Positions 13,954-18,383 of a DNA stretch of 26,214 nucleotides are shown one piece after another (within the stretch, counting starts at the first letter, position 1; each line of letters starts with the position of its first letter). This DNA is from Planctomycetota bacterium (GTDB taxonomy: Bacteria; Planctomycetota; GCA-002687715; DRQF01), in NCBI GenBank assembly GCA_027001995.1, contig JALTLO010000088.1:116520-142733 (forward strand), in the 5' to 3' direction. A program made the translations under genes and the position numbers. The notes under the pieces are model-generated. The model was not told the DNA's origin and did no database searches. It saw only the letters and a list, made by a program, of their open reading frames with translations.

Positions 13954-14613
13954 ATGAATTCTCCCCGACCTTCTCAGCATGGCTTCACTTTAGTCGAGCT
14001 GCTCGTTGTGATTTCCATCATCCTACTCTTGGCGACCTTTGGTGTGACCAAGTTCATCGAAGGAAAGCGTGATGCTGAGATGGTGACATCGCAGGATCAC
14101 TTGGGGCAGATCCTTTACCACTTGAAGCGATTTGAAACGAAGAAGAGAAGTCTTCCTATCAAGCGCAAAGATGGCTCCTATTTCACCGGCTCCGAGTTTG
14201 TTTTGGCTATTTGGGATGATGCCATTCTGGACAAGACGGCGAACAACGCGAAGATCTTCTTCTGCCCCTCTTTGGCCCAACCACCGTTGACTGAGGATAA
14301 CTTGGAAGACATGGTGACGGCGGAGAGCATTCACTATGCCGGGCGTACTCAGGAGAACAAAGATTTCCGCATTGGGCGAAGCACCCAGGGTAAGCCTTCT
14401 AAGACAATTGTGGCTTGCAATAAGCCTTTGTTTGAAGGCCAAATCCCTCATGCGGGCCGAGCCTTGGCAGTCATCTACCTGGACGGCAGTAGTGGTGAAA
14501 TTTCACGGGAAGACTTTGGCCCTGACTGGGGCGATGATGAACCCCTTGCTATTGGCGAAGAGTCCCCAGTGGAAGCACTCCAAGGCCTCAGCGGAGCAGG
14601 TGACGACTACTAG
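13954..14613 (+). CDS. Prepilin-type N-terminal cleavage/methylation protein (DUF1559-like, PVC type)
   Basis: G|FTLVELLVVISII class III signal, FFCPS, and C-terminal HAGRALAVIYLDG (a 10-residue variant of H-X9-DG). Confidence 0.85.
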   Translation: MNSPRPSQHGFTLVELLVVISIILLLATFGVTKFIEGKRDAEMVTSQDHLGQILYHLKRFETKKRSLPIKRKDGSYFTGSEFVLAIWDDAILDKTANNAKIFFCPSLAQPPLTEDNLEDMVTAESIHYAGRTQENKDFRIGRSTQGKPSKTIVACNKPLFEGQIPHAGRALAVIYLDGSSGEISREDFGPDWGDDEPLAIGEESPVEALQGLSGAGDDY

Positions 14614-14634
14614 ACTATCGCCACAGTGTAGAAT

Positions 14635-14758
14635 GCGGCCACCGTTGATTTGAATCAGCTTGTACGGGGTTCATGGATTCCTGCACTTCCTGAGGTAAGG
14701 AGTGGCAACCATGCAATGTCATGGGGGTTGAAACAGCTGTTCCGAATCCGGACGCCGC
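14635..14758. ncRNA. Candidate structured RNA: long irregular hairpin with central bubble
   Basis: Nested pairings GCGGC/GCCGC, CCG/CGG, GATTTG/CGAATC, CAGCT/AGCTG, then a bubble, then CATGG/CCATG and CACTTCCT/AGGAGTG. Confidence 0.4.
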
Positions 14759-14989
14759 TGACGAGAGGCCTCCACAATAGGAAGGGCAGTCGCCCTTCTT
14801 GACTTCGAGGAGAATCCTGAACTTAAGAAGCGGTGAGTTTGGCCAGCACAATTTGGGAAGAATGTTGCTTGCAAGGCCGGGCGTAAATTCCTGAGATTCT
14901 CCCTCTTGGCGGTTCCTTGATTTGATCGGGTGAGTGGGGCGGGGCTTCGACAAAACTCTCCAGGTTTTCTCCCTATTCCAAGGCAATGT

Positions 14990-15420
14990 CGTGCTGCATC
15001 GAGAGAGCAATCGTTTTCGTTTGGGCGTTTCCTCCAGGTAACGAAGAGGGGGCACTGCCTTTCTGGATTGATCTGGGGGGGCTCAGCGAAATGCTCCAAA
15101 CCCCCTTTGCTGGGATATTTATCGCTATTTCGTCGTTTTTGTCGGCTTGGCACAATGGTTGCGACTTGTGGGGCCATGACAAACAAACGTGCCGTGTCTT
15201 TGACGCGATTGAGAGGGGGACGGTTTCCTTGCCCGTCCGGCTGGTTGTCGCTGGCGTAGCGAGACCGAGACGATAGCAGGGGCCCATGAGTATGGGGCTT
15301 GAACCGATGTCCATCGGTGCCGGAATATCACCCAGCACGCCCGGACTCAAAGCAGGCGTTTCGTATTCCACTTGTGGAATTCCGATCTTCTTGGGGTGTC
15401 GGTGCACAAGAAATCCCCAA
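14990..15420 (-). ncRNA. Unassigned structured RNA element, copy 1 (long form)
   Basis: No credible ORF. Dense hairpins with G-U pairs mostly on the minus strand. Six sequence blocks are shared in order with 17732-17937. Confidence 0.6.
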
Positions 15421-15430
15421 GTGCCCAATC

Positions 15431-15470
15431 GAAGGGCCGTTGTCTCCTTGGAAACAGCGGCCCTTTTCTT
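15431..15470. terminator. Probable bidirectional intrinsic terminator
   Basis: AAGGGCCGTTGTCTCC / GGAAACAGCGGCCCTT stem with a TTTTCTT tail on +. It lies about 27 nt after the stop codon of the minus-strand lipoprotein gene. Confidence 0.7.
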
Positions 15471-15496
15471 GCGTCATCATGGAATGAAAGAAAGTC

Positions 15497-15907
15497 TCAT
15501 TTGCGCTTCATGGTGAATTTCTTTCCTTCTGATTCGAAGAGGAGCTTGTCGCCATTGATGGTCGCGACGGCGAGTTTCTCTTTGCCGTCCACAGTGGTCT
15601 TGAGAGTGAGTTTGTCGCCGTCTGATTCTGTGACCTCGAAGTCGCTGCTTTTCTCTTTTGAGTCTCCCATGAGCTTCATCTTGCTTATGACCTTATTGCC
15701 GGAGAAAGTGATCTCCATGTCCATCGACTCAAGCACATTGAGCATGCCCTTCTTGCTGATCTCATTGGCGTCTTTGTATTCAGATGTCTCTTTGAAAGAG
15801 TCTATGTCTAGGACCCAAGTGCCTTGCAATTGGTCTTCTTTCGAGTCTGAGCAAGCGGCCGGAACCAGTAAGATTGCCAGAAACGCGATAACGTAGGTGA
15901 TTTTCAT
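15497..15907 (-). CDS. Small lipocalin-like lipoprotein
   Basis: Signal peptide with PAAC lipobox, LQGTW motif and beta-strand pattern. Confidence 0.7.
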   Translation of the reverse strand: MKITYVIAFLAILLVPAACSDSKEDQLQGTWVLDIDSFKETSEYKDANEISKKGMLNVLESMDMEITFSGNKVISKMKLMGDSKEKSSDFEVTESDGDKLTLKTTVDGKEKLAVATINGDKLLFESEGKKFTMKRK

Positions 15908-15925
15908 AATACTTGTCCTTCGGTT

Positions 15926-16441
15926 TTAGTGTTTCAGTATTCCAAGATAGGCTTGCCAAGGCCCGACGGCGTCTTTGAGCTGCCTGCTCATGACACGAGC
16001 GATTTGGGCGATGTGCCCTAAGTCGTGTACGACCCAGGTATTCAGCAGTTCACTGAGGGTAACCATACCAAACTCGGGGTGCTTCCCTGTGAGTGACAGT
16101 TGGGAGGGGGTTAAGTCGAGACTTCGGACCCGTTCTAAGTTGGCACCGCGGAGTGTGGCAAAGTTGCTTAAGAGCTTGGCTATTGAGGTGTTCTTGGGGA
16201 AGTTGAAACGGTCAAAGGGTGTGAACGTAACTTGTTCACCTTGCTGCAAGATGATCTCCAAGCGGGGAATCCAGTCAGTCTTTTCGCCATGAATGAGATG
16301 GGCCACGACATCAAGGGGGTTGAAAGTCCCTTCTCCTTCGTTTGACTCAAGCATCCGCTGAGGCGTGTCTGCCAAGAGGGCTTGAAGAATATGGGGTGTT
16401 CTCGAAAGCGTCCCCAGGATTTCTGAGATGGTCAAATTCAT
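15926..16441 (-). CDS. DinB/YfiT family protein
   Basis: DVVAHLIHGE, HPEFG and WVVHDLGHIAQI metal-binding histidines. The real start is probably ATG at 16441. Confidence 0.88.
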   Translation of the reverse strand: MNLTISEILGTLSRTPHILQALLADTPQRMLESNEGEGTFNPLDVVAHLIHGEKTDWIPRLEIILQQGEQVTFTPFDRFNFPKNTSIAKLLSNFATLRGANLERVRSLDLTPSQLSLTGKHPEFGMVTLSELLNTWVVHDLGHIAQIARVMSRQLKDAVGPWQAYLGILKH

Positions 16442-16650
16442 GACGGGGATTCCATCTGGGCCAAGGGGTGGAGCTATGGGATCAGATAGAAATCTAAAGG
16501 AGAGCGGAAGAGATTGCAAGCGTTGCCTTGGCTCAAGAGATAGGCTGTTCACCGTGGCAAAAGTGCCCCAAGAATCATCTCTGCTGAGGGGACAATGATG
16601 TAGGTGAGCAGTTAGAATGACGGAGGAATCTGAGACATTGGGGAGAGGAC

Positions 16651-17841
16651 ATGAAAGCAGTTGTTGTGGTGTTTGTTTTGGTGAGTGTGCTCTTTTGGAT
16701 TGCAACCTGGGAAGCGCCTCCTCCTTCCGAGGATCTGGAGGTTTCTCAGATTGAAGACCGGGATTTTCTTATTCGAGTCGTAGATGAGGCGGGAGTCCCC
16801 ATGGACCACGCTCTCGTTGTGATCATAGATCCGGATCAAGAGAAAATTCCGAACATGGCGTTTGATTACTTTCAGGCCCGCAATTTCAGACAGGGCATCA
16901 CGGGAGAGGATGGATCTTTTGCCGTCCGTGTAGCTGCCAATCAGGGAGATAAACTGTTCTATGCTCGAAGACTTCGTTTTTTGTGTCTCAGATTCGGGGG
17001 GGAACCCCTGGATGTCACGGTGGACCTGAACCCGAGCACCTCGGAAATAAAGTTAGTCATGCCGCCCACCCTCCGTTTGCATCTGAAGGTAGAGGATCAG
17101 GGGCGGGCGATTGAAGAAACAGCTCGTGTTGTTTGGGTGGCAGGGGATCGTTCACCAAACTTGGGGGGCAACACGCGTATACATCGAAGAGAGCCCCTGA
17201 GCAAAAACATCTTGGACTACCTTGTTAAGTGGGAAATGCCCGTCCCGCCGGCAGGGATCGTGCTTCGTGCCTTTGCACCCGGAGTTAAAATCGCCATGGC
17301 TATACAGGTGCCCCACTGTGAAAATGCCAAACAGGTCATTGCTTTGCCCAAGTGCGATGAACATCAAGCTGTCCTTCAAGTCGGCAAGAGAAAGGTCAGA
17401 CTACTGCTCTCCGTCGTGGATGAGAATGGCGATGACGCTCAAGCTCTTCTCGAGAACTCGAAGGCGGGGTGGTCCGTTGAGCTCTCCCAAGAGCATGATG
17501 AAGAGACGATCGCAAGAATGAAGAAAGTCAGAGAATCTCTCATGAAACGGGGGCGTCCTTTTCGAGTACCTTTGCGTACCCGGATTTTTCGCGGAAGAAA
17601 ACTGCTTCCGACAGGAAAGAGGCCCTTGAGGAGTTGCTCGAATGACGTGGGCCGAGACATCGCGTCGCTTCGGTGGTATGGCCCTGGGGCTGAAGGCAAA
17701 AAAACGCCCCACACCTTTCCCGAGATGTGGGGCTGCATCGCTGCCACTGCAACGAAGTGTGCTACCTCGGGGAGCATCTTCCCCTGTTCGTCGGAGGGCG
17801 GTTTGACGAACGGGGCGGCTCCGGGAGAGAACACTGTCTGA
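16651..17841 (+). CDS. Exported/membrane-anchored hypothetical protein with carboxypeptidase-regulatory-like beta domains; 3' end doubtful
   Basis: GAGGA SD, N-terminal hydrophobic segment, and repeated VVDEAGVP / VEDQG / VVDENG and TGEDGSF motifs. The last ~50-100 codons look atypical and overlap a structured element. Confidence 0.6.
   Translation: MKAVVVVFVLVSVLFWIATWEAPPPSEDLEVSQIEDRDFLIRVVDEAGVPMDHALVVIIDPDQEKIPNMAFDYFQARNFRQGITGEDGSFAVRVAANQGDKLFYARRLRFLCLRFGGEPLDVTVDLNPSTSEIKLVMPPTLRLHLKVEDQGRAIEETARVVWVAGDRSPNLGGNTRIHRREPLSKNILDYLVKWEMPVPPAGIVLRAFAPGVKIAMAIQVPHCENAKQVIALPKCDEHQAVLQVGKRKVRLLLSVVDENGDDAQALLENSKAGWSVELSQEHDEETIARMKKVRESLMKRGRPFRVPLRTRIFRGRKLLPTGKRPLRSCSNDVGRDIASLRWYGPGAEGKKTPHTFPEMWGCIAATATKCATSGSIFPCSSEGGLTNGAAPGENTV
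17698..17733 (-). terminator. Minus-strand intrinsic terminator
   Basis: Minus strand reads GCCCCACATCT-CGGGAA-AGGTGTGGGGC-GTTTTTTT (11-bp stem plus U7). Confidence 0.8.
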
Positions 17842-17992
17842 ATCCCTCTTCGGTGTTGGGGGTTAAATAGAGCCGAGGGACCAAAAGGTTCCCCGGCTCT
17901 GGAAATATCACCCAACACTTGCTCCGGCTTACAAAGCCTTGGACGACCCTCTTACGAGCGTCGTCGTCATCCCTTTTCGCAAGGGCTATGCC
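17698..17992 (-). ncRNA. Unassigned structured RNA element, copy 2 (compact form)
   Basis: At least eight helices, a GUAA (GNRA) tetraloop on the minus strand, its own terminator, an AT-rich upstream region, and homology to copy 1. Confidence 0.65.
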
Positions 17993-18383
17993 ATTGGAAA
18001 GAAAATTGTGAAAATTCTCTAAGATGCTTTTGAGAAAGGACTTGGGCCCATAGGTTGGCTGTCGGCCAAGAGGAGGATCCAGGTCTGCTTGTAAAGCAAT
18101 ACTTACGGTGGCTCCCAGACGTATGACATCCTTTGGAAAGACGGTGCGGTCTTTGTGGTGGCATTCTTGTTGACCATGAGGCTCTGGTTAGAATCTTAAA
18201 GTTCAGTCGAGAATGTGAAGCTATTCTTGACCGAGCCTTAACCTGACTTTTTCATGAGATCGTGGCCCTGAACATTTCGGGTAAAGCGCCTCATGTGCAT
18301 TTTCCCAACCAAGAGCTGCTCCTGACTACAGGCCCTTTCGGTCCTGACTCAGTTGTCGCCAAAGAAGCTGTACGGGTCCACCC

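Follow-up and report, generated by a model that had tools for sequence, protein, structure and literature searches.

A candidate sigma-54-dependent small RNA family in an order of Planctomycetota

Several bacterial small RNAs are transcribed with the aid of sigma-54. The Qrr1–5 RNAs of Vibrio (RF00378) depend on sigma-54 and the activator LuxO, are about 100 nucleotides (nt) in length and consist of stem-loops, a conserved unpaired seed and a Rho-independent terminator. GlmY and GlmZ of Enterobacteria (RF00128 and RF00083) are driven by sigma-54 together with the activator GlrR, have three activator boxes and include, in GlmY, an RNA that acts by protein mimicry, not through a seed. CrcZ (RF01675) is, as Qrr and GlmY/Z are, a sigma-54-dependent small RNA. 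We know of hardly any regulatory RNAs that have been characterized in Planctomycetota. Here we describe a locus in a 26,214-base stretch of a Planctomycetota genome (contig JALTLO010000088.1; hereafter the window), in which a preliminary description had noticed two regions, copy 1 and copy 2, that share six co-linear sequence blocks. Copy 2 is best explained as the gene for a small RNA with a conserved unit of ~105 nt and a sigma-54 promoter, and we regard this explanation, taken as a whole, as likely on the strength of comparative sequence analysis. Copy 1 is probably a relic of the same gene.

The candidate RNA resembles the Qrr RNAs in its length, its sigma-54-type promoter with a presumed upstream activator site, its stem-loops, its unpaired conserved stretch and its terminator. 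It differs from them in that it shows no similarity in sequence or to the model of the family, occurs as a single copy per genome rather than as the one to five paralogues of Vibrio, and belongs to a different phylum and to a genome in which Hfq was not found. With GlmY and GlmZ it shares a sigma-54-type promoter with a presumed palindromic activator site upstream and the predicted form of a free-standing, terminated small RNA, but it matches neither family in Rfam, and one palindrome was detected here as opposed to their three boxes. RNase P RNA, transfer-messenger RNA (tmRNA), signal recognition particle (SRP) RNA, group I and II introns and riboswitches are likewise structured non-coding regions with conserved blocks; unlike them, this locus has a short conserved unit with an unpaired core and with its own promoter and terminator.

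Searches for known RNAs agreed with the preliminary description, which had been unable to place the element in any of these classes. Nowhere in the window did Rfam 15 give a match at the gathering score. With the limit raised to E = 10, positions 14600–18300 gave only unrelated below-threshold matches, mostly on terminator hairpins, and up to E = 1 over the loci of seven relatives the matches were again unrelated and below threshold. ARAGORN found no transfer RNA or tmRNA. Two hallmarks of known small RNAs are present: a -24/-12 promoter at gene-start distance, as in sigma-54-dependent small RNAs, and a conserved unpaired stretch (the presumed seed) between structured elements together with a Rho-independent terminator, as in base-pairing small RNAs. 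A full-text search, within the part of the literature that it reached, returned no description of a sigma-54-driven small RNA in Planctomycetota. The locus is a new small RNA family of a known type, not a new class of structured or catalytic RNA.

A predicted small RNA gene with a sigma-54-type promoter

On the minus strand of copy 2, a sigma-54-type promoter is followed by two stem-loops (SL1 and SL2), a single-stranded region that contains an invariant 15-mer, and a terminator hairpin (Table 1). The spacing of the promoter predicts a transcript start at about 17967–17969. The same order of elements is found at the loci of relatives, in which a sigma-54-type promoter precedes one to three variable hairpins, SL2, the unpaired stretch with the 15-mer and, directly after it, a strong terminator hairpin, the tail of which is U-rich in most members. 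SL2 and the terminator hairpin (-22 to -36 kcal/mol) are present in all 24 distinct members, and in every one of them the terminator hairpin begins no more than 13 nt after the 15-mer CAAGUGUUGGGUGAU. The 15-mer is unchanged in 20 of 20 and in 24 of 24 aligned members, and its flanks vary. A strict pattern recognizes a sigma-54-type promoter at the corresponding position in 18 of 20 loci, and a looser pattern does so in 23 of the 24 distinct members, with metagenome sequences added.

Across the order, the 5′ part of the element differs in how long it is and in how many hairpins it has, and the stem of SL1 changes with compensation in one of the two other genomes of the genus (G002). The RNA gene that the preliminary description had placed on the minus strand is retained for copy 2. 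Of the shared blocks, AATATCACCCAACAC (17904) falls within the single-stranded region, and those at 17732, 17749, 17769 and 17854 fall in a 3′ extension that is specific to the genus.

Table 1 Features of the candidate small RNA gene, its upstream region and copy 1 (positions in the window)
Feature	Position	Strand	Remarks
Candidate small RNA gene (copy 2)	about 17969 to 17865; genus-specific extension to 17699	minus	
Palindrome GTAAAGCAATACTTAC (GTAA-N8-TTAC), presumed activator binding site	18091..18106		starts 113 nt before the promoter 15-mer
Motif CTTAGAGAA	18015..18023	minus	about 22-30 nt upstream of the sigma-54 promoter
Sigma-54-type promoter TGGCATAGCCCTTGC (TGGCAT-N5-TTGC; -24 GG, -12 GC)	17979..17993	minus	9/10 specified positions of TGGCAC-N5-TTGC
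5′ stem-loop SL1 GACGACGCUCGUAAGAGGGUCGUC	17942..17965	minus	from folding of the short form
Stem-loop SL2 (GGCUU-UGU-AAGCC)	17926..17938	minus	covarying
Single-stranded region GGAGCAAGUGUUGGGUGAUAUUUCCAG	17899..17925	minus	contains the 15-mer CAAGUGUUGGGUGAU (17921 to 17907), the presumed seed
First terminator	17862..17900	minus	hairpin 17900 to 17869, -22.9 kcal/mol; poor U tract AUUUAAC
Genus-specific 3′ extension	17699..17861	minus	anti-seed CCCAACAC (17860 to 17853), fast-evolving middle, 3′ hairpin, second terminator
3′ hairpin UCGUUGC-AGUG-GCAGCGA	within 17757 to 17736	minus	
Second terminator	17733 to 17706, then U7	minus	strong
Copy 1, putative diverged, promoter-less duplicate of the long form	14990..15360	minus	
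Copy 1 hairpin	15358 to 15338	minus	
Copy 1 seed-like GUGCUGGGUGAUAUU	15338 to 15324	minus	
Copy 1 anti-seed CCCAGCA	15114 to 15108	minus	
Copy 1 CUUCGUUAC	15046 to 15038	minus	
Copy 1 CGAUGCAGC	15001 to 14993	minus	

Distribution across the order

When the minus strand of copy 2 was compared with 40 related genomes by BLAST, only its first ~50 bases were conserved, and these were found in all 22 other genomes of the order. Of the 23 genomes of the order, 21 contain a single exact copy of the 15-mer; among 378 other Planctomycetota genomes only one contains it, at a chance site that has neither promoter nor terminator. Two covariance models were used: R1, built from five like-sized members, which scores the 24 members at 39.2-110.7 bits, and R2, which was searched over 150 genomes and matched in all 23 genomes of the order. 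On inspection, the weak match in G019 is only a terminator at a gene end, and the match in G015 is a true member that has a variant seed with promoter and palindrome intact. Because the former was rejected and the latter accepted, we count a convincing copy in 22 of the 23 genomes, one in each. The G015 element (L166, G015:C13, minus strand) has extra bases inside the otherwise invariant 15-mer (CAAGUGAUGAUGGGUGAU).

Outside the order, R2 produced seven weak matches (22.9-34.5 bits) in 127 genomes, and all four of those inspected are gene-end terminators without a promoter. No convincing copy of the family was found beyond the order among Planctomycetota genomes, 127 of which were searched with the model and 378 with the exact 15-mer. 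Scans of public genomes and metagenomes add three full members (L122, L125 and L131) and one partial member (L119). Members carry database labels of Planctomycetota or of Planctomycetia metagenome-assembled genomes, with a few odd labels. At nine chance matches in unrelated taxa from a genome-collection scan, and in a further metagenome set, there was no sigma-54-like promoter or strong downstream hairpin, apart from L108 and L111. On the metagenome contigs L108, L111 and L115, a sigma-54-like promoter (TGGCACAACCGATGC) is followed by a short hairpin and the same 18-mer, after which no terminator hairpin follows (R1, 13.5 bits); these may represent a distant or truncated relative.

Covarying hairpins around an unpaired core

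A MAFFT alignment of 20 members yielded no structure in RNAalifold. Because MAFFT had misaligned the hairpins, we used a hairpin-anchored count and a model-fitted alignment instead. Anchored on the hairpin, SL2 has 15 distinct variants in which all 75 of the 75 cells of the five outer pairs are standard, a result reached by none of 2,000 shuffles, and pairs 3, 4 and 5 show compensated changes. In the model-fitted alignment, 98.4% of cells are paired and 18 of 20 pairs have changed on both sides, including three of the five SL2 pairs and all 15 pairs of the first terminator. The covariation score is 0.784. None of 500 shuffles reaches it (0.230 +/- 0.020), and sliding the partners gives no more than 0.19. 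The pair counts come from an alignment fitted to the model, and the SL2 stems were defined by folding each sequence, so that both methods lean towards pairing; even so, the covariation effect is large. The preliminary description had looked to homologues and covariation for support, and for copy 2 both were found.

This pattern bears on whether the 15-mer is an RNA element at all. It might instead be a DNA site that serves the neighbouring genes as an operator or promoter element, or belong to a leader with control over the adjacent miaB-like methylthiotransferase gene, given that the locus always adjoins that gene and that in one genome (G010) the two have the same orientation. However, the hairpins on either side of the 15-mer covary, as expected for RNA, and all members have a strong terminator downstream of it. 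In most genomes the element is directed away from the miaB-like gene, and the upstream sigma-54 promoter and palindrome are conserved at the spacing of an RNA gene. We give a DNA site or leader hardly any credence.

The control region

A palindrome upstream of a -24/-12 promoter is the layout of an enhancer-dependent sigma-54 promoter. In an alignment of the upstream regions, 16 of the 24 members, and G015 as well, have GTAA-N8-TTAC at a distance of 102-178 nt on the upstream side of the promoter. The genome of the window (labelled G000; 5.2 Mb) contains this palindrome 11 times, and only the occurrence at the small RNA gene has a sigma-54-like promoter within 30-230 nt. Because the palindrome marks no other such promoter in G000, the small RNA may be the main output of its activator. 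The genome encodes 16 strong sigma-54 activator domains, the nearest activator gene being about 31 kb away from the small RNA gene. Such activators number 7-16 per genome. In five relatives no sigma-54 activator gene was found near the small RNA; where the contig carries one at all, the closest is at a distance of 47-107 kb. The sigma factor gene itself, rpoN, was recognized by the sigma-54 DNA-binding domain in 21 of the order's 23 genomes, among them the other two of the genus.

Between the palindrome and the promoter lies the motif CTTAGAGAA. This or a near-identical motif occurs at a similar distance in the family-f1 loci L027, L028, L030, L031, L032 and L037, and it could be a DNA-bending site, or the -10 element or another promoter part of the divergent miaB-like gene.

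A probable 3′ extension in one genus

In all other genera the RNA ends at a terminator homologous to the first terminator hairpin of copy 2. In the genus of the window (g1; G000 and two other genomes, G001 and G002), the tail of the first terminator is AUUUAAC or AUUUAUC, not a U run, which makes read-through to the second terminator plausible. We propose that the first terminator has lost its U tract in this genus and that transcription probably reads on for about 165 nt to the second, adding an extension that could fold back on the seed. When the long forms of the three genomes are compared, nearly identical sequence over the first 108 nt gives way to ~120 nt that cannot be aligned, after which the 3′ hairpin (CGUUGC-N4-GCARCG) and the strong terminator are again conserved.

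In minimum-energy folds of all three long forms, the seed pairs with bases directly after the first hairpin, and it does so through different sequences. The seed/anti-seed duplexes of G000, G001 and G002 have energies of -14.0, -14.4 and -13.1 kcal/mol and rank 66 of 2274, 77 of 2561 and 176 of 3131, respectively, among local windows; 62, 91 and 40 of 1000 mononucleotide shuffles reach the observed energy. The seed/anti-seed helix of the preliminary description survives weakly: it recurs in the three genomes of the genus by way of different sequences, but against controls each instance is individually marginal. Within the genus, such pairing is suggestive and not established.

The preliminary description had gone further, and read both copies as a multi-way-junction RNA family of 250-370 nt with an outer helix, a seed/anti-seed core and a variable periphery. 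Much of what it recorded can be verified. The six co-linear blocks are real, the complementary pairs that it listed do occur in the sequence, and the seed/anti-seed difference between the copies is compensated (UGCUGGG:CCCAGCA versus UGUUGGG:CCCAACA). In addition, both copies have a minimum-energy fold in which the 5′ GCUUUG block is joined to the 3′ CGAUGC block, and seed-complementary bases follow the first hairpin in G000, G001 and G002. The comparative evidence nevertheless points away from a large junction. Outside the genus, the terminator directly follows the seed region at the short distance seen in all members, and nothing like the 3′ part is seen beyond it, leaving a conserved unit of ~105 nt. 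Inside the genus, the strands of the proposed outer helix and arms lie in the region that cannot be aligned among the three genomes. The anti-seed tests are marginal one by one, as described above. Finally, copy 1 folds no better than its shuffles (minus strand, z = -0.47; plus strand, z = -0.45) and scores only 4.1 bits with R1. Copy 2, in comparison, folds far better than its own shuffles (minus strand, z = -5.4; plus strand, z = -5.1). We consider a multi-way junction very improbable, and return to a short small RNA that in one genus would have acquired a 3′ extension.

Proposed mechanism and function

In the mechanism that we propose, a putative enhancer-binding activator would bind GTAA-N8-TTAC about 110 nt upstream and open the sigma-54 promoter TGGCAT-N5-TTGC. 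The resulting transcript of ~105 nt would comprise at least one 5′ hairpin, SL2, the single-stranded stretch with CAAGUGUUGGGUGAU and the intrinsic terminator, and its invariant stretch would most likely base-pair as a seed with target messenger RNAs (mRNAs) in trans. One signalling input would in this way be linked to post-transcriptional control, as it is by Qrr or GlmY in Proteobacteria. Because an unpaired 15-mer lies between covarying hairpins under a promoter of a signal-dependent kind, we think that the small RNA is probably a trans-acting, base-pairing regulator of mRNAs.

Some observations weigh against this account. The palindrome was not found in 8 of the 24 members, two of which have less than 170 nt of upstream sequence and one of which has a variant with one mismatch. 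Searches with the Pfam domains Sigma54_DBD and Sigma54_CBD did not find rpoN in the G000 assembly, which is 92% complete; the absence is probably an assembly gap. The lack of an Hfq match in G000, mentioned above as a difference from the Qrr system, also counts here. Across G000, 161 complementary sites of at least 10 bases were counted, compared with about 179 expected by chance, although this genome-wide test is crude. In a local duplex scan of eight loci, no conserved pairing site was found in the neighbouring genes.

A more ambitious version of the account would make the small RNA the sole dedicated output of one sigma-54 activator, give the genus a self-inhibiting 3′ extension in which the anti-seed is selected through changing sequences, and treat the promoter-less duplicate as a second regulator or a decoy. 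That these should all hold together seems doubtful to us. If the first of them did, the locus would be a signalling module with one input and one RNA, conserved throughout an uncultured order of Planctomycetota. The locus is in any case a compact and testable module, with a defined (presumed) activator site, a sigma-54 promoter and a 15-base seed unchanged across four families, and it could be used as a reporter for the signal, as a northern probe or as bait for target capture.

Gene neighbourhood

The small RNA is usually flanked by a pilin-like gene, the product of which has an N-terminal methylation motif, and a miaB-like methylthiotransferase gene. Six relatives share the order metK, pilin-like gene, small RNA and miaB-like gene within about 3 kb, and the small RNA is usually convergent on the pilin-like gene. 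In G010 (L043, G010:C27), the small RNA runs in the same direction as the metK, pilin-like and miaB-like genes, to which it is opposed in G005; the small RNA gene has been inverted in place in G010. The pilin-like gene of G002 is on a different contig from the small RNA. In the window, the pilin-like gene and copy 2 are separated by three genes, which encode a lipoprotein, a DinB-family protein and an unknown protein. Copy 1 stands directly after the pilin-like gene, which is the ancestral position, and copy 2 keeps the ancestral link with the miaB-like gene.

The open reading frame at 16651-17841 (plus strand, 396 codons) is a real gene. Its homologues have 25-32% identity, include several copies in G006 and match residues 31-268 only, and its last ~50 codons run antisense through the 3′ extension and the second terminator. 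G001 and G002 keep the 3′ module with no such gene nearby. Decay of a protein-coding gene, which the preliminary description had named as a threat to its RNA interpretation, receives no support from the open reading frames and was rejected. Those of copy 1 have no Pfam match, and the homology of the 396-codon frame is limited to the residues given above. Moreover, the 15-mer lacks variation of a synonymous type, and the frame that opens at the GUG of the seed closes after six codons in families f2 and f3.

A putative duplicate, copy 1

The six co-linear blocks were confirmed at their described positions and in the same order in both copies, but they differ in weight. GCTGCATCG (14993/17732), GYAACGAAG (15038/17749) and AATATCACCCARCAC (15324/17904) occur exactly twice each in the window, and GGGGGCA and GGGGAGCA also have two occurrences each. 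TGYTGGG, CCGG and CAAAGC occur 10, 104 and 11 times and therefore carry little weight. A MAFFT alignment of the two copies did not pair the blocks with each other. Exact matches of at least 7 bases form a chain between the copies that sums to 48, compared with 29.8 +/- 8.0 for dinucleotide shuffles of copy 1 (9 of 500 reach 48) and 27.1 +/- 7.6 for random genomic 541-mers (9 of 1000 reach 48). As a whole, the co-linear similarity exceeds chance only modestly.

The seed is more telling. In G000, GTGYTGGGTGATATT occurs without mismatch only in copy 1 and copy 2. With up to one mismatch there are four sites in 10.4 Mb (both strands), two of which are the copies, and at the other two none of the remaining blocks is shared. 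Copy 1 keeps 14 of the 15 seed bases at the ancestral site. Because sites of this quality are so few, and because this one is on the right strand and at the ancestral site, a chance match appears unlikely. BLAST and pattern searches found only these two copies in G000. In our interpretation, copy 1 arose as a partial duplicate of the long form and has diverged, and among the genomes compared it was found only in G000. It would have been left beside the pilin-like gene when about 2.7 kb with three genes came between that gene and the small RNA gene.

Copy 1 does not qualify as the second member of the family that the preliminary description had taken it for. With filters off, it scores 4.1 bits with R1 (E = 0.57 over 901 bases), far below the range of the 24 members, and the single match of R2 in G000 is copy 2. 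Upstream of copy 1, the best sigma-54 match has 7 of 10 positions and lacks the GC, and there is no palindrome; no terminator was found for it. BLAST did not find copy 1 in G001, G002, G003, G005 or G006, nor did the sequence after the G002 pilin-like gene or the G001 contig fragment contain it. A relic is the probable reading, and at most copy 1 would be carried along in a neighbouring transcript. Two features tell against simple decay: the blocks of 9 to 15 bases are clean within sequence that otherwise cannot be aligned, unlike the product of neutral decay, and the single seed difference is matched by a compensating change in the anti-seed. Because of this misfit, we keep two minority readings of copy 1.

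In the first, copy 1 is a functional paralogue with an altered seed, comparable to the several Qrr genes of Vibrio, and would be expressed by read-through from the lipoprotein/DinB operon, which lies upstream on this strand, or from a promoter of a type outside our scans. The retained seed bases and compensated anti-seed speak for such a paralogue, and a hairpin stands immediately before the seed, as in true members. A 34-nt hairpin on the minus strand after the lipoprotein gene (15432-15465) has no U tract, so that lipoprotein/DinB transcription might continue into copy 1. G001 and G002 also contain one extra seed-like site each, but these are not syntenic with copy 1, which itself was not found in either genome. 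Copy 1 moreover lacks the GAGCAAG of the conserved single-stranded region, a convincing sigma-54 promoter, the palindrome and a terminator, and its fold is unremarkable (z = -0.47). A working paralogue is thus unlikely in our view.

In the second, the plus strand of copy 1 matters: within an extended 3′ region of the pilin-like transcript, it would present the small RNA with a near-perfect target or decoy and would replace the antisense overlap made possible by the convergent ancestral layout. This strand is the best local partner of the seed and forms a duplex of -47.8 kcal/mol with the 5′ half of the small RNA, in which the seed difference becomes a U-G wobble, and in G002 a 22-base seed-like site, matching at 20 of 22 bases and wobble-compatible, lies opposite an FG-GAP gene. 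Yet any gene duplicate is antisense to its original, and the pairing is therefore uninformative. A terminator-like hairpin at 14779-14800 separates the pilin-like gene from copy 1, and G-U pairs in the hairpin of copy 1 favour the minus strand. We judge a plus-strand role to be quite improbable and continue to regard copy 1 as a probable relic.

The extra site in G002 (GGAGCAAGUGUCGAGUGAUAUU; L133, G002:C217, 4727-4748, minus strand) differs from the small RNA at two bases that are both G-U compatible. It lies opposite a gene for a secreted protein with FG-GAP repeats (start about 4799, plus strand), 51-72 nt upstream of the ATG, and from this position the leader of that mRNA would carry a 22-base pairing site. 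With a BLAST E value of only 0.33, the site may be due to chance. The extra site in G001 (GUGUUGGGUGAUAUUCCAAGGGCCGGG; L132, G001:C306, 3930-3956, minus strand; BLAST E = 0.013, R1 13.3 bits) lacks GAGCAAG, is not syntenic with the window and is preceded by a sigma-70-like TTGACA...TATTGT.

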